DNA of 13,208 nucleotides from a virus (Duplodnaviria; Heunggongvirae; Uroviricota; Caudoviricetes): IMG/VR virus record IMGVR_UViG_2671180439_000003; one strand, 5' to 3'. The translations under genes and the position numbers were made by a program. This document shows, piece after piece, positions 1 to 13,208 of this stretch; position 1 is the first letter of the stretch, and each line of letters begins with the position of its first letter. The notes under the pieces were generated by a model. That model was not told where the DNA came from. It searched no databases and saw only the letters and a list, made by a program, of their open reading frames with translations.

Positions 1-245
1 GTCATCCATATCACCACGTCAAAGGGTGACAGCAGGCTCATAAGACGCCCCAGCGTCGCCATAGTGCGCTCACCGAATACGTGCGCAACAACCGTCTTCC
101 GGAGACTGTCATACGCGTAAAACAGCCAGCGCTGGCGCGATTTAGCCCCGACATAGCCCCACTGTTCGTCCATTTCCGCGCAGACGATGACGTCACTGCC
201 CGGCTGTATGCGCGAGGTTACCGACTGCGGCCTGAGTTTTTTAAG
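1..245 (-). CDS. insB: IS1 InsB frame (C-terminal part of the InsAB' transposase), partial; truncated by the window edge
   Basis: Hand translation of the -1 frame after the A6C motif gives ...[64 protein letters not shown]..., which matches recalled IS1 InsB. The ORF runs off the start of the window. Confidence 0.8.
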
Positions 246-493
246 TGACGTAAAATCGTGTTTAGGCCAACGCCCATAATGCGGGCTGTTGCCCGGCATC
301 CAACGCCATTCATGGCCATATAAATGATTTTCTGGTGCGTACCGGGTTGAGAAGCGGTGTAAGTGAACTGCAGTTGCCATGTTTTACGGCAGTGAGAGCA
401 GAGATAGCGCTGATGTCCGGCGGTGCTTTTGCCGTTACGCACCACCCCGTCAGTAGCTGAACAGGAGGGACAGCTGATAGAAACAGAAGCCAC
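218..493 (-). CDS. insA: IS1 InsA (transposition regulator, N-terminal part of the InsAB' transposase)
   Basis: 91-aa [43 protein letters not shown]... ending ...[11 protein letters not shown], recognised as IS1 InsA with zinc-finger cysteines. It ends just after the A6C slippery site. Confidence 0.95.
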
Positions 494-543: not shown

Positions 544-840
544 TCACCCATCCGAGCATCTGCGTTTCTTCGCGATAGAACGCAGTGAGATACCTATAAC
601 AAAGTGAGCAATGATCAGTTCATATTCTTCTGGTTTATATTTACGCAACCGCACCACACAACCGTCTATCATGATCCCTTCATCATCATCACACTGGAGG
701 CGTGACTTTTTACCGTGTGGTAAAAGCCCCTTGAAGCCTGCCGCGATCGGCTGCCAGTCCACTCCGCTGTTATCTGCTGCTGCCCATGCTCCCCAGCGGT
801 CCAAAACCTCGTACATATCACGCATCAAATCTCTCCACAA
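544..840 (-). CDS. Hypothetical prophage early-operon protein, C-terminally truncated by the IS1 insertion (probable true start is the ATG at 825)
   Basis: ORF ends ...SIAKKRRCSDG with its last codon and TGA stop (546-544) supplied by the IS1 terminal repeat (IS1 boundary at 548). The track start at 840 is TTG; an in-frame ATG with a gagag RBS-like sequence lies at 825-823. Confidence 0.4.
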   Translation of the reverse strand: MWRDLMRDMYEVLDRWGAWAAADNSGVDWQPIAAGFKGLLPHGKKSRLQCDDDEGIMIDGCVVRLRKYKPEEYELIIAHFVIGISLRSIAKKRRCSDG

Positions 841-842
841 AA

Positions 843-1232
843 TCAGGCCAGCACACCAATTGCCAGCGCGCGATCGATAAATCGAAAAATTAGCTCCAGT
901 TGGGAACCATACTTCTCTTCAAATGCCACAGTGTCCACATGCAACTCGTCGTGATGCTTTCTGCACAAAGGCAATACAAAGAGGTCATGCGCTTTTGTAC
1001 CCTGGCGACGCGCCTTACGCGTTAACCAGCCTTCTGCTTCCAGCCGTGCGATAGCCGTTCTGACGGTACTCATCCCCGCGCCAATCTGGCGGGCAATGGT
1101 TTCAATTGATGGCCAGCACACACCTTCGTCATTACTGAAATCAGCCAGGCGGGCCATAATTGCCACACTGGATAATTTCATGCCTGACGCTGCGCAACCA
1201 TCCCATACATAGCCGGTTAATTTAGTGCTCAT
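843..1232 (-). CDS. Phage early-region helix-turn-helix DNA-binding protein (replication-organiser-like N-terminal domain)
   Basis: 129-aa ORF with an HTH-like segment WPSIETIARQIGAGMSTVRTAIARLEAEGWL. Its ATG (1232) overlaps the stop of the upstream gene, as in phage coupled operons. Same strand as the Cro-like gene. Confidence 0.6.
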   Translation of the reverse strand: MSTKLTGYVWDGCAASGMKLSSVAIMARLADFSNDEGVCWPSIETIARQIGAGMSTVRTAIARLEAEGWLTRKARRQGTKAHDLFVLPLCRKHHDELHVDTVAFEEKYGSQLELIFRFIDRALAIGVLA

Positions 1233-1646
1233 GACCGACCTCTATTTCCCTGAATTTACGACGAAACTGTTCGAGCGGGCTGAAGCACTCATGCTCATAG
1301 CCTTCGCGGAGGTAGATAACCCGTTGTGTTTCCGGCTCCCAACGAATGACTCTGACGGGCACTCCGTAGTGATCTTTGAACCAGCGGTTAACTTCTCGCA
1401 AAGGACTGTCTCCTTCTGCCGGTTGAAATCCCCCACAGCCCACTCAGCAAAGCTGTGGGTTACAATTTCCCTGTCACCTGGTACATTCACTGCATAGCAA
1501 TACTCCACCTTCGCTTTTCCACCCGGTACAGGAAGCGCAATCAGTTGCGAGTGACGGTAGTGTGTTGTTATAAACTGTTCATGCGTTAGTTTCTCCACAG
1601 TCACGACACGCCACGGCGCCCGGAGCTGCACACTCGCGGGCGTCAT
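1222..1646 (-). pseudogene. Phage early-operon gene that appears frame-disrupted at a C5/G5 homopolymer (1430-1434); two partial frames (1242-1745 track ORF and 1222-1443) would fuse if the run were G6
   Basis: Frame B reads ...[11 protein letters not shown] and then degenerates into a serine-rich tail. Frame A reads [72 protein letters not shown] and ends with a stop overlapping the next gene's ATG. By hand translation, one extra G in gctgtgggggatttc joins B to A. Confidence 0.35.
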
Positions 1647-2130
1647 TACTTTCTGAAATGCAAAATATTTTGTAGACCAGTGCTGCATGCTCCTGCAGCT
1701 TCGAAATTGAGAGATACAGCTCGTCGTTAATTGCTGTTTTCTCATGCGGTTCCACTACACCGTCTTCAATTGCTGAACGAATCTGTTTTGAATAACTGCC
1801 GATCTGTTCAATGACCTCCAGCAGGCGTTGGTTGATATCGGCGTTGTCCACATCCTCGACATCAGGAAGAGACACAAAGACGCCATTTGCAGACTGCGCC
1901 ACAGCGTCAGCAATGAAGTGAGTTCCACCAGCACGTTGCAAAATCATTGCCCATCCCAGCGGGAAAATCTGATCGCCATCGGCACGAAGGCGGTTAAATA
2001 ATGCGTTCTCTGTTACATCCAGCCAGTCAGCAGCTTCAGCGTACCCCCCCGGCAACGCTGCGATAGTTTTTCTGACAGCTTTCACGTACCACTCAGGCTG
2101 TTTTTCTACTTTCCAGTGATGCTTACCCAC
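1579..2130 (-). CDS. Prophage early protein of unknown function (e14 YmfL-like by position and recollection)
   Basis: 183-aa ORF. GTG start at 2130 is preceded by GGAGG 6 nt upstream and overlaps the Cro-like gene stop by 8 bp. It is second in the leftward early operon. Confidence 0.6.
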
Positions 2131-2383
2131 GGTTCACCTCCTGTTCCTGTGGTTTAAACCCATTCTGGTTTTGGCTAGATTGAAAACGTGCCGGATAAAG
2201 AATCTGCATTTCGCTGACTTCACCCTTAAAAAAATTGGCTAATCGTTCTGCAAGCTCGATAGATGGAATCTGCTCCAGCCTCTCAATACGACTCAACGTC
2301 GCTGGATTGACTTGAACACCCGCAGCAACATGCTGCAAAGTGAAACCATGCGCCTTACGCACATTTCGTAATGGTGATTGCAT
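2123..2383 (-). CDS. Cro-like HTH transcriptional regulator (XRE family)
   Basis: ATG at 2383 preceded by GGAGGG with correct spacing. HTH segment GFTLQHVAAGVQVNPATLSRIE. Divergent from the CI-like repressor across a 97-bp operator-like region. Confidence 0.7.
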   Translation of the reverse strand: MQSPLRNVRKAHGFTLQHVAAGVQVNPATLSRIERLEQIPSIELAERLANFFKGEVSEMQILYPARFQSSQNQNGFKPQEQEVNRG

Positions 2384-2480
2384 ATGCCCTCCAAATATTG
2401 CGCGTTATGCATGTTATTTCACGCAATTATTTTGCGCAAGTTGATTTGCTTATCACGCAATAAAGAAATGTAATAAACGC
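2384..2480. promoter_or_regulatory. Divergent promoter/operator region between the Cro-like and CI-like genes
   Basis: Repeated motif tcacgcaat at 2419-2427 and 2453-2461, palindrome ttgcgcaa at 2432-2439, and related ttgcgcg at 2398-2404. A candidate -35 TTGCTT (2446-2451) and -10 TGTAAT (2469-2474) on the plus strand would place the transcript start at or next to the repressor ATG. Confidence 0.5.
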
Positions 2481-3173
2481 ATGAACATAGGAAACCGAGT
2501 CAGACAACTTCGCCAAGCGAAGAACATGAAAATCGCCGATCTCGCTGAAGCAATAGGAGTAGATGCGGCGAACATCTCGCGCTTAGAAACGGGTAAGCAA
2601 AAACAATTTACCGAACAAACACTGAGTAATATTGCCAAGAGCTTAGGTGTTGATATTGCTGATCTCTTTACCTCTGCCCACAAAAGTAATACTGTATATA
2701 AAAACAGTAATAATGAGGATGTTGCGCAGGTGAAGGATGTGTTCCGTATTGAAATGCTGGATATCAGTGCCAGTGCGGGAAATGGCCTTATCCAGGGCGG
2801 TGATGTCATTGATGTGATTCATGCCATCGAATACAGAACTGATAATGCTGTATCAATGTTCGGCGGACGACCAGCCAATCACATCAAAGTTATCAACGTT
2901 CGTGGGGACAGTATGTGTCCAACCATTGAGCCAGGAGATCTCATCTTCGTTGATATCAGCATCAATCAGTTTGATGGTGATGGTATATATGTCTTTGGTT
3001 TTGATGACAAAATATACGTTAAAAGACTTCAAATGATTCCTGACAAACTGCTGGTGATTTCTGATAACCAGATTTACCGTGAATGGGGAATTACTAGCGA
3101 AAACGAACACCGATTCATGGTCTTTGGAAAGGTCTTAATCAGTCAGTCGCAAACCCTTAAGAGACATAATTAA
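2481..3173 (+). CDS. CI-like phage repressor: N-terminal XRE-type HTH plus C-terminal S24 (LexA/CI-type) autopeptidase domain; resembles e14 CohE
   Basis: 230-aa ORF. HTH MKIADLAEAIGVDAANISRLETGKQ. S24 catalytic serine in VRGDSMCPTIEPGDLIFVD and lysine in KIYVKRLQM. Followed by an intrinsic terminator. Confidence 0.85.
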   Translation: MNIGNRVRQLRQAKNMKIADLAEAIGVDAANISRLETGKQKQFTEQTLSNIAKSLGVDIADLFTSAHKSNTVYKNSNNEDVAQVKDVFRIEMLDISASAGNGLIQGGDVIDVIHAIEYRTDNAVSMFGGRPANHIKVINVRGDSMCPTIEPGDLIFVDISINQFDGDGIYVFGFDDKIYVKRLQMIPDKLLVISDNQIYREWGITSENEHRFMVFGKVLISQSQTLKRHN

Positions 3174-3192
3174 CCTCAATATCCCATCCATC

Positions 3193-3217
3193 GGCCACCT
3201 AAAGGTGGCTTTTTATT
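3193..3217 (+). terminator. Rho-independent terminator downstream of the CI-like repressor gene
   Basis: Hairpin gccacc/ggtggc (3194-3199 and 3204-3209) with a 4-nt loop, followed by tttttatt (3210-3217). Confidence 0.6.
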
Positions 3218-3228
3218 ACCTATAAATT

Positions 3229-3264
3229 TGCATATCTCGCAAATATCACTTGCATATCTCGCAA
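3229..3264 (+). repeat. Two direct copies of the 14-bp sequence tgcatatctcgcaa, 22 bp centre to centre
   Basis: Exact copies at 3229-3242 and 3251-3264, in noncoding DNA just after the repressor terminator. Confidence 0.5.
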
Positions 3265-3429
3265 TTTAATTTTATCTTTTGTTCCAGACCAACTACAGGA
3301 TTACAACAAAATCTGGTTGCAACACGGTGCATGTGTCGTAAGCAGTCAGTAAATGTCAAAAACGAACAGGCAGGACGCCCACGAAGTAGCCGCCTGGGGC
3401 ATATGAAGTCCAGGATGATTCGTTAGCAA

Positions 3430-3453
3430 CAAAAAAGCGTCCTACAGGACGCT
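3430..3453 (-). terminator. Rho-independent terminator on the minus strand, at the 3' end of the Ag43 remnant ORF
   Basis: Stem agcgtcc/ggacgct (3436-3442 and 3447-3453) with loop taca; on the minus strand it is followed by a T6 run (plus-strand aaaaaa at 3430-3435). Confidence 0.5.
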
Positions 3454-4810
3454 TAGCTCTTTAACAATCTGGTCCCCATCAACAAGTAACTGATAACTTG
3501 AGGAGGTGTGAAATGCACAAAACAGAACCAAAAATCGTCGCGCCCGGATGCCCAGACGGAAGCCGGCACGCACATGTTGTGCACTGCCATGCCCGAACTT
3601 CACATAACCGGCGTTATCCTGGCCGTCATCCAGGGAGAGTCCCTGCCAGGTGTACTGCAGTTGCGGCTCCAGCATCAGATTGTCAGTGATACTGAAGAGC
3701 AGACCGGTTTCCAGTGAGCCCAGCCAGCCCCAGCCCCGGGCGCGGAAGTCGTTATTGTCCGATGACGCTTTCATGCTGTGGCGGGTTCCCTGTGCCACAA
3801 TGTCAGCCCACAGGCCGGAGGACGTGTGTGTCAGATTCAGGTATCCGCCCAGGCTGCCGGCATCATCCCGGACCGTGCCGGCGCGGGAACCGTCATCATC
3901 CTTAACATCAACGGAAGAATGGCCTGCAGCACCATATACCCCTGTCGTCAGAGACATACCGGCAACCTCTGTTCTCAGCAGGTCACCCTCCAGACGGACG
4001 AAGCCATAGCTGCCGCTGCTTTCCGGCGTGGCTCCACGGGCAATACCCCCCATTCAGCGTGGTATCCAGTGCGTGACCATGTACAGTCTGGTCGCCGCCG
4101 GCATAAACCACAGTGGTATTTGCCGTTCCTTCAGCAGCCACAATCTGACGACCATTTTTATTGATGGTGGTGCGTACGGCATCTCCGTAGACGGTCTGCC
4201 CTGTATCACCATTTTCTGCATCCGGTCCCCCTTCCGCGCCGGTATTCACAACCGTGTCGGTTGCCATTGCGCCGGATTTGACGGCCTGCCAGCCCTTCTC
4301 ATTAATGACGGTACCCGTTGCAATCCCGCCTTCATGTACCCACTGCTCACCGCCGTTCAGAGTGGTATTCACTGCCTGCCCCTGAAGGCTCTGTCCGCCT
4401 CCGGCACTGATAACCGTGTCTGAAACGCTTCCTCCGGCATTCACTCTCTGAAGACCACCACCGGTGACAGTAGTGTTGTTGGCGGTACCGCCATTTTGTA
4501 TCCATTGGCCGCCGGTATTCGCCTCGTTATCCGGCCCATACTCCAGCCCGGTACTGATGGTCATTCCGTTGGCCGTACCGAGAACAATCTGGTTGTCATG
4601 ATTTGTCAGTGTTCCGCCGCTCACGGTTTCTCCCGCCTGTACGACCGTGTCAGCAGCCAGTGCCGGGACTGATGTGACAGCAGCAAGAGACAGCACAATC
4701 GCCACACCGGCGCATTTTCCCCGTGAGCGGGCCAGTTCGGAAGCCACCACCAGGGTGCCCGTAATGTGATTCCATACCAGCCTGTAGCTGGTGTTCAGAT
4801 GTCGTTTCAT
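3442..4810 (-). pseudogene. flu: Antigen 43 (Ag43) self-associating autotransporter gene, disrupted: N-terminal passenger part, internal deletion/frameshift near 4046-4051, and 3' truncation of the beta-barrel domain
   Basis: N-terminal ORF begins MKRHLNTSYRLVWNHITG... with a long autotransporter signal peptide, then ...AADTVVQAGETVSGG... repeats; ATG at 4810 has an AGGA RBS. The second ORF in another frame contains ...GGIARGATPESSGSYGFVRLEGD...YVKFGHGSAQHVRAGFRLG, then non-barrel sequence with no C-terminal aromatic residue. Total about 1.37 kb, against roughly 3.1 kb recalled for intact flu. Confidence 0.85.
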
Positions 4811-5019
4811 CAGCTTTTCCTTACAGAGGGTGAATAAAAAAGCCGGTACCCACAAATGTGGATACCGGCAGGTACAAAACAGCATGGTCAGATAAAGTGG
4901 TTTTTCCCGGACATAAATGCTTCCCCTCTCTCATCCGCCAGAGAAGTATCAGTCCGTTGTGTGCAATTCCGTTCTGCATGATGAAGAGATTCAACTGCCT
5001 TTTCGCAGGCCATTAACCA

Positions 5020-5070
5020 CTATAAACGATCGATAGCAACGATCGATACCTGTTTTATCGATCGTTTTAT
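5020..5070 (-). promoter_or_regulatory. agn43 phase-variation switch region: three clustered Dam GATC sites (OxyR-binding region)
   Basis: GATC at 5028-5031, 5041-5044 and 5060-5063 within aaacgatcgatagcaacgatcgatacctgttttatcgatcg, about 220-250 bp upstream of the flu start codon on the same strand. Confidence 0.75.
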
Positions 5071-5182
5071 TCTATTGATTGCAAGGCGGTCACGCAAGAG
5101 AAACAGGAGGAGCATGAGGTGTTTGTGTCATGTTTTCAGTTGGTTAACGCAATGTAATCAGGCATTTCCCCTGGCAGACTGT

Positions 5183-6055
5183 TCAGAAGAAAATCCAGTT
5201 CCATACAGCGCGGGCAACAGAGACCACCGAGTCACGGACGGCACGCAGAACCGTGCGTGCAACAGAGGCAATACAGACGCTCTCCGCCGTGTCAAATATC
5301 CGGTCCACCGCACCGGTAAACTGTTCACGGGCCTGAGACCGGACAGATTCCGTGCGCAGCTCGTCCTGCAGGCGGGTCATCAGGGGACTGGTGGCATGGT
5401 CGGGAAGCGCCGTCATGAGCGCACTGACCAGCGTATCCAGTTCCCAGCCGGTGCGGGCCGATACGGCAACAACCGGATGTACGGGCCGGAACAGACGGAA
5501 TACCGCATCTGTTTTCTCACGAATATTCTGTGCCTGTGCGGGAGAAGGCTGAATGCCGGCCATATCCCATTCATGGCAGGGCTCCGTTTTGTCGGCCTGC
5601 GTCACCACAAACAGCACCTGCTGATGTCCCCGGTGCAGGATGTGTCGCCAGAAATACTCATCCACAGACAGGGCACGGTCATCGGCTTTAATCAGCCACA
5701 GTACCAGGTCAAGTTCAGGCAGAATGTCACGGTACAGGGCTTCATACTCTGCATCCCTGTCCCGGCTCTCGCCCACCCCGGGCAGGTCAGTGATAATCAT
5801 GCTGTGACCGTGGCCACTCAGACGGAAGCGCCGCACTTCCCGGGTGCCGGCGTGAACATCACTGACCGGGGTGACCTCCCCCTGAAACAGTGCATTACAG
5901 AGTGAGGATTTACCGGCCCCGCTTTTACCCATAATGCCAATCACGGGTTCGTGACTGGTGAGTTTACGCAGATGTTCCAGGATGTGACGGGAAAGTGAGT
6001 AAGGCAGGGAAGAAAGTGGTTTTTCAATTGCCTCAATGGCATCAGACGGATTCAT
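5183..6055 (-). CDS. yeeP: YeeP/YkfA/YfjP-family GTPase of unknown function (CP4-type island gene upstream of flu)
   Basis: P-loop GIMGKSGAGKSS, DLPG (G3) and TQAD (G4-like) motifs. Positioned immediately upstream of Ag43 on the same strand, as in CP4-44. Start assigned to the ATG at 6055; the track ORF extends to a non-ATG start at 6094. Confidence 0.75.
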   Translation of the reverse strand: MNPSDAIEAIEKPLSSLPYSLSRHILEHLRKLTSHEPVIGIMGKSGAGKSSLCNALFQGEVTPVSDVHAGTREVRRFRLSGHGHSMIITDLPGVGESRDRDAEYEALYRDILPELDLVLWLIKADDRALSVDEYFWRHILHRGHQQVLFVVTQADKTEPCHEWDMAGIQPSPAQAQNIREKTDAVFRLFRPVHPVVAVSARTGWELDTLVSALMTALPDHATSPLMTRLQDELRTESVRSQAREQFTGAVDRIFDTAESVCIASVARTVLRAVRDSVVSVARAVWNWIFF

Positions 6056-6070
6056 ACATGTATTCCCGGT

Positions 6071-6108
6071 GAAAAAAGACAAAACCCCGCGCACCGGAAA
6101 GGTGGCGG
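6071..6108 (-). terminator. Possible minus-strand intrinsic terminator (GC-rich bulged hairpin plus T-tract) just upstream of the yeeP-like start
   Basis: Plus-strand ccccgcgcaccggaaaggtggcgggg forms a stem of about 10 bp with one bulge. On the minus strand it is followed by a T-rich run (revcomp of gaaaaaagacaaaa at 6071-6084). Confidence 0.35.
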
Positions 6109-6318
6109 GGGATTCACGGAGATAATATCTGTCTGAAATTATTTAGAATGCACCTGGTGCACTGCAAAGGAAAGGCAATATTCCGTTCCTCCTCCTTGTC
6201 GTGAATACCCCAGGTATCTCACAATATACACCGACTTACTCCGGGGCTGCCTGAACCACAAGATTGCTGTAGAATTGCCCCCAATGATTCAGGTCCAAAC
6301 CAGGCAAATGGATTAAAA

Positions 6319-7875
6319 ATGACAAGTATTCAACAACGAGCAGAACTGCACCGCCAGATATGGCAAATTGCCAATGATGTCAGAGGTTCTGTTGACGGAT
6401 GGGATTTTAAGCAATACGTTCTGGGCGCGCTTTTCTACCGTTTTATCAGCGAAAATTTTTCCAGCTATATTGAAGCCGGTGATGACAGTATCTGTTATGC
6501 GAAACTGGATGACAGCGTAATTACTGATGACATTAAAGACGATGCCATCAAAACTAAAGGCTACTTCATCTACCCAAGTCAGCTTTTCTGCAACGTAGCT
6601 GCGAAAGCAAATACCAATGACAGACTGAATGCAGATTTAAACAGTATCTTCGTTGCTATCGAAAGTTCTGCTTACGGTTACCCTTCAGAAGCTGACATCA
6701 AAGGTTTGTTTGCTGATTTCGATACCACCAGTAACCGCCTGGGTAACACCGTTAAGGATAAAAATGCCCGCCTGGCTGCGGTTCTGAAAGGGGTTGAAGG
6801 GTTAAAGCTTGGCGACTTTAACGAACATCAGATTGACCTGTTCGGCGATGCCTATGAGTTCCTGATTTCTAACTATGCGGCGAATGCTGGTAAGTCAGGC
6901 GGCGAGTTCTTTACACCGCAGCACGTCTCCAGGCTGATTGCACAACTGGCAATGCACGGCCAGACCCACGTTAACAAAATCTACGACCCGGCAGCAGGTT
7001 CCGGTTCGCTGTTGTTGCAGGCTAAAAAACAGTTTGATGACCATATCATCGAAGAAGGTTTTTTTGGTCAGGAAATCAACCATACGACCTATAACCTGGC
7101 GCGTATGAACATGTTTTTGCACAACATCAACTACGACAAGTTTGATATCAAGTTGGGCAATACGCTGACTGAGCCGCACTTCAGAGATGAAAAACCGTTT
7201 GATGCCATCGTTTCTAACCCGCCGTATTCGGTGAAATGGATTGGCAGCGATGACCCGACGCTGATTAACGATGAACGTTTTGCCCCGGCTGGCGTTCTGG
7301 CCCCCAAATCCAAAGCTGACTTCGCGTTTGTATTACATGCGCTGAACTATCTTTCGGCCAAAGGTCGTGCTGCGATTGTCTGCTTCCCGGGTATTTTTTA
7401 CCGTGGCGGCGCGGAGCAGAAAATCCGTCAGTATCTGGTCGATAATAACTATGTCGAAACCGTGATTTCACTGGCACCGAACCTGTTCTTTGGCACCACC
7501 ATTGCCGTAAACATTCTGGTGCTGTCTAAACATAAAACGGATACCAAAGTTCAGTTTATTGACGCCAGCGAACTGTTCAAAAAAGAGACTAACAACAATA
7601 TCCTGACCGATGCCCATATCGAACAGATTATGCAGGTATTTGCCAGCAAGGAAGATGTTGCTCATCTGGCGAAATCTGTCACGTTTGAGACCGTTGTCGC
7701 GAATGACTATAACCTGTCGGTAAGCAGCTATGTGGAAGCGAAAGATAACCGCGAAATTATCGATATCGGTGAGCTGAATGCTGAGCTGAAAACCACGGTC
7801 AGCAAAATCGACCAGTTGCGCAAAGATATTGATGCGATTGTGGCTGAAATTGAAGGCTGCGAGGTGCAGAAATGA
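6319..7875 (+). CDS. hsdM: Type I restriction-modification system methyltransferase subunit HsdM (N6-adenine MTase)
   Basis: 518-aa ORF. N-terminal HsdM domain ([34 protein letters not shown]), AdoMet motif [11 protein letters not shown], catalytic motif IV NPPYS. Stop overlaps hsdS start (ATGA at 7872-7875). Confidence 0.95.
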
Positions 7876-9098
7876 GCGAGTTGAGTTATCTGGAAAAATT
7901 GCTGGATGGGGTTGAGGTTGAGTGGTTGCCATTGGGGGAAGTCTCAGCCTTAAGAAGAGGCAGAGTTATGTCAAAGGGATATTTAACTGAAAATTTTGGC
8001 CCATATCCTGTCTATAGCTCTCAAACTGCAAATAATGGGAAAATAGGTTCTATCAATACCTTCGATTTTGATGGCGAATATATAAGCTGGACAACAGATG
8101 GCGCAAATGCAGGCACTATGTTCTATCGAACAGGTAAATTTTCAATAACTAATGTTTGCGGCCTGATTACATTAAAAAGTAAATACTCATTAATCTACAA
8201 ATTTCTGTTTTACTGGCTAACAATAGAAGCCAAAAAACATGTTTACTCAGGAATGGGAAACCCCAAGTTAATGAGTCATCAGGTTGAAAATATACCTGTA
8301 CCAATCCCCTGCCCGGATAATCCGGAAAAATCCCTCGCCATCCAGTCTGAAATCGTTCGGATTCTGGACACATTCAGCGCCCTGACAGCAGAACTGACAG
8401 CAGAACTGACAGCAGAGCTTAACATGCGTAAAAAACAATACAACTACTATCGCGACCAGTTGTTGAGTTTTAATACCGAAGATGTTCCACATTTACCTAT
8501 GGGACAAAAAGATATTGGCGAGTTTATCCGGGGTGGTACTTTTCAGAAAAAAGACTTTATAGATGCAGGTGTAGGGTGCATACACTATGGTCAAATCTAT
8601 ACGTATTACGGAACATATACAGAAAAAACAAAAACATATATTTCAACCGCACTTGCAAAAAAATGCAAGAAGGCTCAAAAGGGAGATTTGATTATCGCAA
8701 CTACTAGTGAGAATGATGAGGATGTATGTAAAGCTGTTGCATGGTTAGGCAGTGAAGATATAGCAGTAAGCAGTGATGCCTGTATTTACAAACATAATTT
8801 AAACCCTAAGTATGTCTCATATTTTTTTCAAACAGAACAATTCCAAAATCAAAAAAGACAGTATATTACTGGCGCAAAAGTTCGGCGTGTAAATGCTGAT
8901 AATTTATCTAAGATATTAATTCCAGTTCCTTCTATGGAGATACAGGAACGTATAGTATCCATTCTCGATAAATTCGACACCCTGACAAACTCCATCACTG
9001 AAGGTCTTCCGCGTGAAATCGAGTTGCGCCAGAAACAATACGAATACTACCGTGATTTACTGTTCAGTTTCCCGAAACCTGAAACTGCCAGTAATTAA
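7872..9098 (+). CDS. hsdS: Type I R-M specificity subunit HsdS, type IC (EcoR124 family) architecture with two target-recognition domains and a central TAEL-repeat region
   Basis: 408-aa ORF. Conserved N-terminus [23 protein letters not shown], central [58 protein letters not shown]-terminal [40 protein letters not shown]. Two visibly AT-rich variable segments between the conserved blocks. Confidence 0.95.
8385..8420 (+). repeat. Tandem 12-bp repeat (acagcagaactg twice, then acagcagagctt) encoding [12 protein letters not shown] in the HsdS central conserved region
   Basis: Read directly: in-frame copies at 8385-8396, 8397-8408 and 8409-8420; the third has two synonymous changes. Confidence 0.9.
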
Positions 9099-9219
9099 TT
9101 GAGCATTGCTACCGATCGGACCACCTTAACACCCGGTCAGTATATAGACTATTTTTTACGCGCCGGAAGTCACTCTTAACGCCCTTCCGGCTCTTGCCAG
9201 GCGGCACAAAGGATGCGCT

Positions 9220-12200
9220 ATGACTAATCAAACACACACCATTGCTGAATCCAATAACTTTATCGTCCTTGATAAGTACATCAAAGCTGAGCAAACAAGC
9301 GACAGCTACCAGAGCGAATCGGACCTGGAACGTGAACTGATTCAGGACCTGCGGAATCAGGGTTATGAATTTATTTCCGTAAAATCACAGTCGGCAATGC
9401 TGTCCAATGTTCGGGAACAGCTTCAGAGCCTCAATGGTGTGATGTTTAATGACAGCGAGTGGCGGCGCTTCACGGAGCAGTATCTGGACAACCCCAGCGA
9501 TGGTATTCTGGATAAAACCCGTAAAATCCATATCGACTATATCTGCGACTTTATTTTTGACGACGGGCGTCTTGAGAACATCTATCTGATCGATAAAAAG
9601 AATCTCATGCGCAACAAAGTGCAGATTATCCAGCAGTTTGAACAGGCAGGTTCTCACGCTAACCGTTATGACGTAACTATCCTGGTTAATGGCTTGCCTC
9701 TGGTGCAAATCGAACTGAAAAAGCGCGGCGTGGCGATTCGTGAGGCTTTCAACCAGATACATCGTTACAGTAAAGAGAGTTTTAACAGCGAAAATTCCCT
9801 GTTTAAGTATCTGCAACTGTTCGTCATTTCTAACGGCACCGATACCCGTTACTTTGCCAACACCACAAAGCGCGATAAAAACAGTTTTGACTTCACCATG
9901 AACTGGGCGAAATCAGACAACACGCTGATTAAAGACCTCAAAGACTTTACCGCCACCTTTTTCCAGAAACATACTCTGCTGAATGTTCTGGTGAACTACA
10001 GCGTTTTTGACAGTAGTCAGACGCTACTGGTGATGCGACCGTACCAGATTGCAGCTACCGAACGAATTTTATGGAAAATCAACAGTTCCTATAAAGCGAA
10101 AAACTGGTCCACTCCCGAAAGTGGTGGCTTTATCTGGCACACCACCGGTTCCGGTAAAACACTGACCAGCTTTAAAGCCGCGCGTCTGGCAACAGAACTG
10201 GACTTTATTGATAAAGTCTTCTTCGTGGTCGACAGAAAAGACCTCGATTACCAGACGATGAAGGAATATCAGCGTTTTTCGCCAGACAGCGTCAACGGCT
10301 CGGAAAATACCGCAGGCCTTAAACGAAATCTGGATAAGGACGATAACAAAATTATCGTCACTACTATTCAGAAACTCAATAACCTGATGAAAGCAGAAAG
10401 CGACCTGCCTGTATATAATCAGCAAGTGGTGTTCATATTTGATGAATGCCACCGCAGCCAGTTTGGAGAAGCGCAGAAAAACCTGAAGAAGAAATTCAAA
10501 CGCTATTATCAGTTTGGTTTTACCGGCACACCTATTTTCCCGGAAAACGCTTTAGGCTCAGAAACGACCGCCAGCGTATTTGGCCGTGAATTGCATTCGT
10601 ATGTGATTACCGATGCGATTCGAGATGAAAAAGTGCTTAAATTCAAGGTGGACTACAACGATGTGCGGCCACAGTTTAAGTCTTTAGAGACAGAAACTGA
10701 CGAGAAAAAACTAAGTGCGGCTGAAAATCAGCAGGCGTTTCTTCATCCCATGCGTATTCAGGAAATCACGCAATATATTCTGAATAATTTCCGCCAGAAA
10801 ACTCACCGTACCTTCCCTGGCTCAAAAGGTTTTAATGCTATGTTGGCAGTGAGCAGCGTGGATGCCGCGAAAGCCTATTATGCGACGTTTAAACGGTTAC
10901 AAGAAGAAGCCGCTAATAAATCGGCTACCTATAAACCGCTGCGTATTGCGACAATCTTCTCCTTTGCCGCCAATGAAGAACAAAATGCCATTGGTGAAAT
11001 TTCCGATGAAACTTTTGATACCAGCGCAATGGACAGCAGTGCTAAAGAGTTTCTGGACGCTGCAATTCGTGAATATAACAGCCATTTTAAAACTAACTTT
11101 AGCACCGACAGTAACGGTTTTCAGAACTACTATCGTGATTTAGCCCAGCGGGTTAAAAATCAGGATATCGATCTGCTAATTGTCGTGGGGATGTTTTTAA
11201 CCGGCTTCGATGCTCCAACATTGAACACGCTATTCGTCGATAAAAACTTGCGTTTTCACGGCCTGATGCAGGCATTCTCCCGCACCAACCGCATTTATGA
11301 CGCCACTAAAACCTTCGGTAATATCGTCACTTTCCGGGATCTGGAACGCTCAACTATTGATGCCATAACGCTGTTTGGTGACAAAAACACCAAAAATGTG
11401 GTGTTAGAAAAGAGTTATACAGAGTATATGGAAGGCTTTACTGATGCTGCCACTGGTGAAGCTAAACGCGGCTTCATGACAGTAGTTTCAGAACTGGAAC
11501 AACGGTTCCCTGACCCTGCCAGTATTGAAAGTGAAAAAGAGAAGAAAGACTTCGTTAAACTGTTTGGCGAATACCTGCGTGCCGAGAACATCCTGCAAAA
11601 CTATGATGAATTTGCCACGCTGAAAGCCCTGCAACAAATCGATCTGAGCGATCCTGTTGCGGTAGAAAAATTCAAAGCAGAACATTATGTGGATGATGAA
11701 AAGTTCGCTGAATTGCAAACAATTCGTCTCCCTGCTGATCGCAAGATTCAGGATTATCGTTCTGCCTATAACGATATTCGCGACTGGCAGCGCCGTGAGA
11801 AAGAAGCTGAGAAAAAAGAGAAATCAACCACTGACTGGGATGACGTAGTTTTTGAGGTCGATTTGCTGAAGTCTCAGGAAATAAACCTGGATTATATCCT
11901 TGGACTGATTTTCGAACACAACAGACAAAATAAAGGCAAGGGCGAAATGATCGAAGAGGTCAAACGCTTAATTCGTTCAAGCCTAGGGAACCGTGCTAAA
12001 GAGGGCCTGGTGGTCGATTTTATTCAGCAAACGAACCTGGATGATTTACCGGACAAAGCCAGCATCATTGACGCATTCTTTACGTTTGCTCAACGCGAAC
12101 AGCAACGTGAAGCAGAAGCCTTGATCAAAGAAGAAAATCTCAATGAAGAGGCGGCGAAACGCTATATTCGCACATCTTTAAAACGCGAATACGCCACCGA

Positions 12201-12336
12201 AAATGGCACGGAATTAAACGAGACACTGCCCAGACTCAGTCCTTTAAATCCGCAATATAAAACGAAAAAAAAGACTGTTTTTCAAAAAATTAGCGCATTT
12301 ATTGAAAAATTTAAGGGGGTGGGTGGAAAGATTTAG
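9220..12336 (+). CDS. hsdR: Type I R-M restriction subunit HsdR (endonuclease/translocase), EcoR124I-HsdR-like
   Basis: 1038-aa ORF with AAGGA RBS. PD-(D/E)xK residues D151, E165, K167 in [19 protein letters not shown] fall at the positions recalled for the EcoR124I HsdR active site. Helicase motifs TGSGKT, DECH, TGTP. Length equals the recalled EcoR124I HsdR length. Confidence 0.95.

Positions 12337-13208
<872 letters not shown>

Follow-up and report, generated by a model that had tools for sequence, protein, structure and literature searches.

The stretch of DNA analysed here (hereafter the window) comprises 13,208 nucleotides deposited as IMG/VR virus record IMGVR_UViG_2671180439_000003 and, judged from its sequence, holds an intact chromosomal type IC restriction-modification (R-M) operon of Escherichia coli, belonging to the EcoR124 family and arranged in the order hsdM-hsdS-hsdR. 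The specificity gene of this operon, hsdS, contains three tandem 12-bp units, each encoding the four amino acids (aa) TAEL, and the same allele was observed in E. coli chromosomes with two, three or four of these units on otherwise identical haplotypes. The organisation of the operon, the variation of its repeat tract and the consequences that this variation may have for target recognition are discussed below.

Organisation of the operon and family assignment

The three genes were found in the order that is characteristic of type IC systems (Table 1), in which the stop codon of hsdM and the start codon of hsdS shared 4 bp (ATGA, 7872-7875) and a 121-bp gap preceded hsdR. The Pfam domains were complete in HsdM, HsdS and HsdR, and the lengths of HsdS and HsdR given in the initial annotation of the window agreed with the list of open reading frames (ORFs). 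In identical RefSeq loci, the hsdS product is named WP_020233939.1. In type IC systems, hsdR is placed under its own promoter. A weak sigma-70-like match was detected upstream of hsdR in the window (9126-9155), in a region where the consensus scan returned no more matches than in shuffled sequence, and this match is regarded as a possible candidate for a separate hsdR promoter, for which no promoter claim is made.

The assignment to the EcoR124 family, which had already been proposed in the initial annotation, was borne out by all three subunits. HsdR was aligned with EcoR124I HsdR (2w00_A) over residues 1-1038 of 1038 (2265 bits), HsdM gave a full-length match to 7bst_D, the M protein of EcoR124 (1153 bits), and HsdS was aligned end to end (E = 2e-74) with the S protein of EcoR124 as represented in the cryo-EM entries (7bst_A, 404 aa), which carries two TAEL units exactly where the window HsdS has three. 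Families of type I systems are usually set at >~70% similarity within and <30% between them (as quoted in PMC10030836). The high similarity of HsdM and HsdR to the type IC prototypes was accompanied by the HsdS layout of this type, in which a conserved N-terminus, a first target recognition domain (TRD1), a central region with tandem four-residue repeats, a second domain (TRD2) and a conserved C-terminus follow one another.

However, the kinship with EcoR124 did not extend to the recognition domains. The regions of HsdS outside the TRDs were 87 to 96% identical to those of EcoR124I, against 19% for TRD1 and 20% for TRD2, and it follows from this divergence that the target sequence is not GAA...RTCG. 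The specificity of EcoR124II (GAAN7RTCG) was thus rejected for the window, and the description of an EcoR124II-like enzyme, which the initial annotation had drawn from the subunit lengths, was not sustained, the equal length of 408 aa being a coincidence. EcoR124I and EcoR124II, the type IC prototypes encoded by plasmids R124 and R124/3, share with the window the operon order, full-length HsdM and HsdR matches, the HsdS architecture with near-identical conserved regions and the position of the TAEL tract; three copies are shared with EcoR124II in particular, and natural two- and three-copy forms with the R124 pair as a whole. They differ in being plasmid-borne and not chromosomal, in having TRDs that are in practice unrelated and in the spelling of the repeat unit. 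Two other type IC enzymes, EcoDXXI (TCAN7RTTC) and EcoprrI (CCAN7RTGC), resemble the window system in carrying three copies; the EcoprrI operon has prrC embedded in it, for which the window has no counterpart between hsdS and hsdR.

Table 1. Features of the R-M operon and of its surroundings in the window
Feature	Position	Strand	Description	Basis
hsdM	6319-7875	+	518 aa, N6-adenine methyltransferase subunit	ORF list; Pfam N6_Mtase and HsdM_N; match to EcoR124 M protein
hsdS	7872-9098	+	408 aa, ATG start, specificity subunit	ORF; two Pfam Methylase_S stretches; 7bst_A alignment
HsdS N-terminal conserved region	7872-7940	+	aa 1-23	96% identity to EcoR124I HsdS
TRD1	7941-8291	+	aa 24-140, first target recognition domain, sets 5' half-site	19% identity to EcoR124I TRD1
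HsdS central conserved region	8292-8471	+	aa 141-200, D1 helix of the coiled coil	87% identity to EcoR124I
Three in-frame 12-bp TAEL units	8385-8420	+	aa 172-183, length-variable element	Tandem Repeats Finder, sequence, reading frame
TRD2	8472-8927	+	aa 201-352, second target recognition domain, sets 3' half-site	20% identity to EcoR124I TRD2
HsdS C-terminal conserved region	8928-9098	+	aa 353-408, D2 helix, plus stop codon	88% identity to EcoR124I
hsdS-hsdR intergenic spacer	9099-9219	+	121 bp	sigma-70-like consensus match at 9126-9155
hsdR	9220-12336	+	1038 aa, restriction/translocase subunit	Pfam HSDR_N, SWI2_SNF2/ResIII, T1R_D3-like, EcoR124_C
IS1A fragment	1-493			CH4784 annotation (locus 99.9% identical)
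Decayed lambdoid prophage remnant	~547-3171		Q antiterminator fragment, DUF968 fragment, ymfL, helix-turn-helix (HTH)/XRE regulators	CH4784 annotation
Ag43-type autotransporter	~3548-4809		frameshifted, truncated	CH4784 annotation
YeeP-like gene	5183-6094	-	'GTPase family protein', between Ag43 and hsdM	
Small annotated hypothetical ORF	12310-12501	-	overlaps last hsdR codons	
ISKpn26 (IS5-family) transposase gene	within 12310-13208		starts immediately after hsdR	

The TAEL repeat tract

The repeat tract was recovered by Tandem Repeats Finder as an array of period 12 at 8382-8416, with 2.9 copies, 100% matches, a score of 70 and the unit CTGACAGCAGAA. In the reading frame of hsdS, it resolves into three units, as the initial annotation had stated, of which units 1 and 2 are ACAGCAGAACTG and unit 3 is ACAGCAGAGCTT, with two synonymous differences. 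By our own arithmetic, the chance that an exact 12-mer is twice followed by itself is ~4^-24 per position, or ~5e-11 per 13-kb window, so that the occurrence of a perfect triple 12-mer by chance within 13 kb is negligible and not plausible. The alignment to EcoR124I HsdS placed the tract between TRD1 and TRD2, where the two recognition domains meet, as had been predicted. Two features of the known spacer switches were thus found, namely tandem 12-bp repeats, each coding for four helical residues, in the D1 helix between the TRDs, and alleles that differ only in the copy number of these repeats.

The spelling of the unit in the window (CTGACAGCAGAA) differed from the accgctgagctt type present in EcoR124 mutagenesis primers and plasmid alleles. 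When the window (8382-8419) was compared with related alleles, including that of plasmid pIP1206, the units were seen to be homogenised within each allele, with synonymous changes between alleles (CTGACAGCAGAA, CTGACAGCAGAG and CTTACCGCTGAG). Such homogenisation would be the pattern expected of repeated contraction and expansion, that is, of concerted evolution.

Copy-number variants of the allele in E. coli chromosomes

Among 5,426 complete genomes of E. coli, 62 possessed an hsdMSR block carrying the TRDs of the window. Fourteen chromosomal loci carrying the window allele were fetched and compared over the 6-kb hsdMSR region, and with the chromosome of strain YDC107 the allele was sequence-checked at 15 chromosomal loci. 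Three copies were found in CH4784, Y5, YJ4, CREC-629, LR-31, FDAARGOS_1298, ES11 and LWY24, as in the window; two copies in PCN061, NDM3, 22AR0434, CREC-532 and TUM17668; and four copies in 1000C-3. Forms of different length were otherwise identical or nearly so. No single-nucleotide polymorphism (SNP) in 6 kb separated Y5 (three copies) from NDM3 (two), YJ4 and CREC-629 (three) from 22AR0434 and CREC-532 (two), or ES11 (three) from TUM17668 (two), and a single SNP separated the window and CH4784 (three) from PCN061 (two), as well as Y5 (three) from 1000C-3 (four). The claim of a built-in switch made in the initial annotation has therefore found its natural variants, with two, three or four copies on otherwise identical alleles.

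These loci fell into four haplotypes, which were 3 to 168 SNPs apart from one another and lay in differing flanking contexts. At every copy number the spelling of the unit was private to the haplotype, ending in ...GAA in the window and Y5 group and in ...GAG in those of YJ4 and ES11; a third spelling, CTTACCGCTGAG, was likewise kept whatever the number of units. Since the private spelling was kept whatever the copy number, the length changes are best explained by an origin in situ, and the simplest reading of the sequences would be that at least four independent changes between two and three copies, and one change to four, took place at the locus itself. Among the three closest haplotypes, 13 SNP events in 6,006 sites were counted against four repeat events, which suggests that the tract may change about a thousand-fold faster than the average site, a rough figure from a small sample.

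It could be argued that the tract is a fixed structural feature of D1 that does not act as a switch in practice. With three repeats, the D1 linker (from the LD.F to the R.KQY motifs) measures 17 aa, the length of the equivalent linker of the C-terminal D2 helix, which fits the remark of a review that the optimum seems to be three repeats (PMC3874165), and the three-copy length was found in 30 of the 30 best chromosomal matches. However, a fixed tract is contradicted by an allele that occurs with two copies in five of the fetched loci and with four in one, at a distance of zero or one SNP from three-copy loci. The span lengths in the 60-row match table likewise gave ~30 three-copy records against ~24 two-copy records, with one four-copy record. 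The same variation was seen outside E. coli, in a pair of Klebsiella plasmids whose hsdS is 90% identical to that of the window: CP140501 (IncN) carries two copies and OY978172 four, their HsdS proteins being otherwise identical and their HsdM and HsdR proteins identical. The TRD2 of these two alleles was 100% identical in protein sequence to that of the window. A tract of fixed length is thus very unlikely.

Errors of sequencing or assembly are another conceivable source of 12-bp differences, since miscalls can occur in short tandem repeats, and one record among the protein matches, P0024, could be such a case. This 400-aa protein of the window allele has a single unit and was derived from one short Logan contig; its single-unit form may be an artefact. 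For the set as a whole, however, the artefact is extremely unlikely. The 36-bp tract is far below read length, every difference amounted to a whole number of 12-bp units and left the reading frame intact, and each state recurred across numerous complete genomes that had been produced independently in various countries and laboratories. Moreover, separate RefSeq proteins exist for three copies (WP_020233939 and WP_050019106) and for two copies (WP_042047042, WP_001293044 and WP_086977492).

Three of the strains named above, Y5, CREC-532 and CREC-629, were assigned to sequence type 167 (ST167) in a published comparison (PMC6392093). In the literature searched, no earlier report of the recurrent two-, three- and four-copy polymorphism in ST167 and related genomes was found.

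Exchange with plasmid-borne systems and family-wide copy numbers

The HsdM and HsdR proteins of the window were 99% and 98% identical, respectively, to the type IC proteins of plasmid pIP1206 (NC_010558). The HsdS of this F-plasmid is 427 aa long and has three TAEL units at the same place, but its TRD1 is unrelated to that of the window and its TRD2 is a clear but distant relative, read as RTTG. A two-copy twin of the pIP1206 allele was sought in H208 (pB39_p0111) and rejected, as this gene proved to be a different allele of 401 aa.

A natural chimera between the two systems was found on plasmid pYDC107_184 (CP025708). In the hsdS of this plasmid (201-1445), approximately nucleotides 1-545 were 100% identical to the window allele and the remainder was 100% identical to the pIP1206 gene (1659-2942 of the fetched pIP1206 locus). 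The part shared with the window comprised TRD1, the central region and the three TAEL units in the window spelling, and the part shared with pIP1206 comprised TRD2 and the C-terminus. The crossover was located just 3' of the repeat, and the gene was flanked by the hsdM and hsdR of pIP1206. The chromosome of the same strain, YDC107, carried a window-type allele with two copies and an hsdR annotated as frameshifted. The chimera is the natural counterpart of the EcoR124/EcoDXXI domain swaps made in the laboratory, and its position beside the pIP1206 hsdM and hsdR gives an indirect hint that type IC subunits may complement one another. As the chimera combines the TRD1 of the window with a TRD2 read as RTTG, it also offers a route to the half-site of TRD1.

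Such exchange raises the question of whether copy number is changed mainly by the import of the central segment from other type IC hsdS genes through homologous recombination. The clean crossover in pYDC107_184 speaks in favour of import, as does the finding that many genomes possess more than one type IC locus, with up to six matching places per genome. Within a haplotype, however, two- and three-copy forms shared the private unit spelling and showed no flanking SNPs, which points to deletion or duplication in place and not to a diverged donor. Import is accordingly considered an unlikely main route.

The distribution of copy numbers in the wider family was estimated from samples taken at even steps among the DNA matches to the central region, in which copies were derived from the span length of the query against that of the match. 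Three copies were counted in 27 and two in 31 of the 58 plasmid records sampled, none of which had five; among the 59 E. coli records sampled, 26 had three copies, 32 had two and one had five. A different picture was given by a collection of 15 billion proteins, in which the exact 408-aa HsdS was not found, though RefSeq genomes carry WP_020233939.1. Among the 120 protein matches listed, none had a perfect run of three TAEL units, four had three imperfect units (P0045, P0056, P0077 and P0078) and 98 had the linker length of two copies, the closest matches to the window allele among those listed being two-copy forms. Copy-number frequencies taken from this collection would be misleading, and sampling at the DNA level was used instead. 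For the TRD pair of the window, one to four copies have been seen, the one-copy form coming from a single short contig.

Predicted effect of the tract on target recognition

A change of spacer driven by repeats within hsdS has been textbook knowledge since 1987-89. With four repeats, the specificity for the spacer was reportedly found to be relaxed by Gubler & Bickle in 1991, an observation to which no weight is given here. EcoR124I, with two TAEL units, recognises GAAN6RTCG and EcoR124II, with three, recognises GAAN7RTCG, and the passage from one to the other was ascribed to unequal crossing-over within the 12-bp repeat (PMC3874165). EcoDXXI and EcoprrI have three units, and in hybrids with altered repeat numbers the spacers were changed as predicted (PMC3874165). 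In a later study, the deletion of one TAEL unit converted EcoR124II into EcoR124I and shifted restriction to phages with an N6 site (PMC10644984). A precedent for a natural polymorphism is NgoAV, a type IC system of Neisseria gonorrhoeae, in which one LEAT repeat corresponds to GACN6TGC and two to GACN7TGC, as determined by methylome analysis (PMC6789123). Like the window system, NgoAV has a four-residue repeat in the central region of HsdS, present in zero to three copies between strains, and thus shows the same kind of population polymorphism. It differs in the organism, in the LEAT sequence of the repeat and in a poly-G frameshift that truncates HsdS and also sets specificity; moreover, the link to the methylome has been proven for NgoAV only.

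By analogy with EcoR124I and EcoR124II, each TAEL unit would add approximately one helical turn to D1, and the extra turn would displace and rotate both recognition domains by roughly one base pair on the target DNA. An enzyme with three copies would then place N6-methyladenine (m6A) in a bipartite site whose methylated adenines are separated by 8 bases, and one with two copies in a site where 7 bases separate them. Units of the 12-bp array could be gained or lost through slipped-strand mispairing or unequal crossing-over, and each such change would retarget both methylation and restriction while the recognition domains remained untouched.

The initial annotation had expressed the first of these predictions as an N7 spacer, and the comparison with pIP1206 shows which part of it can be retained. 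The pIP1206 system is 100% identical at the nucleotide level to RM.EcoST101IX (= Eco067II), to which methylation of CC(m6A)GN6RTTG was assigned by SMRT (single-molecule real-time) sequencing (bioRxiv 10.1101/2020.06.07.138552). This site is written with N6 although its HsdS has three TAEL units. The spacing between the methylated adenines has been named the 'Me-interval' (PMC3874165); in the pIP1206 site, the G, the six N's and the R make up an interval of 8 bases, so that the number of N's that is written depends on the half-sites. Three copies are read as N7 only if the half-sites have 3 and 4 nucleotides and the adenine is placed as in EcoR124. Thus, the prediction of 8 bases between the methylated adenines was kept for the window, but not the literal N7, and the rule that three copies necessarily mean N7 was ruled out by pIP1206, whose three units go with CCAGN6RTTG and a 5' half-site of 4 nucleotides. 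The comparison offers a correction for automated prediction: what the number of repeats sets is how far apart the methylated adenines lie, and not how many N's are written.

Activity, decay and weight of the evidence

The three intact ORFs, together with the 99% and 98% identity of HsdM and HsdR to the SMRT-characterised system of pIP1206, make it likely that the enzyme of the window is active. A contrary view would hold that the system is inactive or in the course of being lost, and that the variation in copy number is neutral drift without effect. Besides the frameshift annotated in hsdR of YDC107, two genes disrupted by insertion sequences (ISs) can be adduced for it. The four-copy hsdS of 1000C-3 (5837-8413 of the fetched locus) was interrupted by ISVsa5, and a five-copy hsdS in FDAARGOS_1251 (2527-5236 of the fetched locus), whose copy number was verified on the sequence, was interrupted by ISEc45. 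In the E. coli chromosomes examined, four and five copies were found only in such IS-disrupted genes. It may be that more than three copies mainly persist once the gene is already dead; yet the four-copy gene on the Klebsiella plasmid OY978172 is intact. Drift as a general explanation is nevertheless unlikely, given that, 1000C-3 excepted, all three genes were annotated as intact and full-length both in the window and in the fetched loci (13 of 14). Moreover, the HsdM and HsdR proteins were identical in three of the four pairs of two- and three-copy loci (in the fourth, the HsdR accession of PCN061 differs from that of CH4784), all length changes kept the reading frame, and methylation was detected by SMRT in a system that shares 98-99% of HsdM and HsdR.

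The anatomy of the operon, its family, the position of the repeat and the two-, three- and four-copy variants on otherwise identical haplotypes are matters of observation. Taking the evidence altogether, we consider it highly probable that the window contains a type IC operon in which the TAEL tract serves as a specificity switch of the EcoR124I/EcoR124II type. Several points weigh against this interpretation. Enzyme activity and the change of target by one base pair are inferred, as is the molecular route by which units are gained or lost, and the first two of these count against it. The count of repeat events assumes four separate lineages and no recombination carrying the tract between them, and the differences in copy number were seen between isolates only, not as switching inside one clone. 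Some relatives are decaying, so part of the length variation could be neutral. Finally, no characterised enzyme with the TRDs of the window was found among those compared, and a literature search on the allele accessions, the strain names and ST167 methylomes found no methylome for these strains, the preprint on ST101 providing a motif for the pIP1206 allele only.

Genomic surroundings

Identity of the window to the chromosomes of two E. coli strains, CH4784 and PCN061, was 99.8-99.9%. The R-M block adjoins the genes for a YeeP-like GTPase and for Ag43, and is followed by a copy of ISKpn26. The YeeP-like gene, as found in CP4-44-type islands, identifies the R-M system as a component of a mobile island, distinct from the classical hsd locus. 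Other ST167 genomes have an intact agn43 in place of the truncated Ag43 stretch of the window. At the other end of the block, the C-terminus of HsdR is full-length despite the overlap with a small ORF, and it ends as in the HsdR of pIP1206.

Elsewhere in the window, Tandem Repeats Finder showed no array comparable to that of hsdS. Two weak arrays were noted, one of three 9-bp units (TGATGTCAT) at 2801-2827, inside the gene of an XRE-family regulator, and one of 1.9 units of 12 bp at 11796-11818, in a stretch of hsdR rich in lysine and glutamate.

Implications for E. coli and the type IC family

The mechanism discussed here was already known, including its natural population polymorphism in Neisseria, and no new principle arises from the window. 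What is new is a TRD pair without characterised specificity in a chromosomal E. coli system, and the recurrence of the two-, three- and four-copy polymorphism inside ST167 and related genomes. Tentatively, and as a possibility that we hold with some doubt, the TAEL tract might, in ST167 and its relatives within E. coli, constitute a contingency locus with several states, which would be switched repeatedly on epidemiological timescales, at approximately a thousand times the rate of the average site, and would in addition exchange modules with type IC systems of F-plasmids resident in the same cell, as in the pYDC107_184 chimera.

The allele resides in the chromosomes of clinically important E. 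coli, including ST167, and the public genomes supply natural isogenic pairs that are one TAEL unit apart, which offer a ready test of the effect of a 12-bp slip on the methylome and on the barrier to plasmids and phages. If the proposal is true, sub-lineages of a carbapenem-resistant high-risk clone would differ in the plasmids and phages that they restrict and in their m6A pattern.

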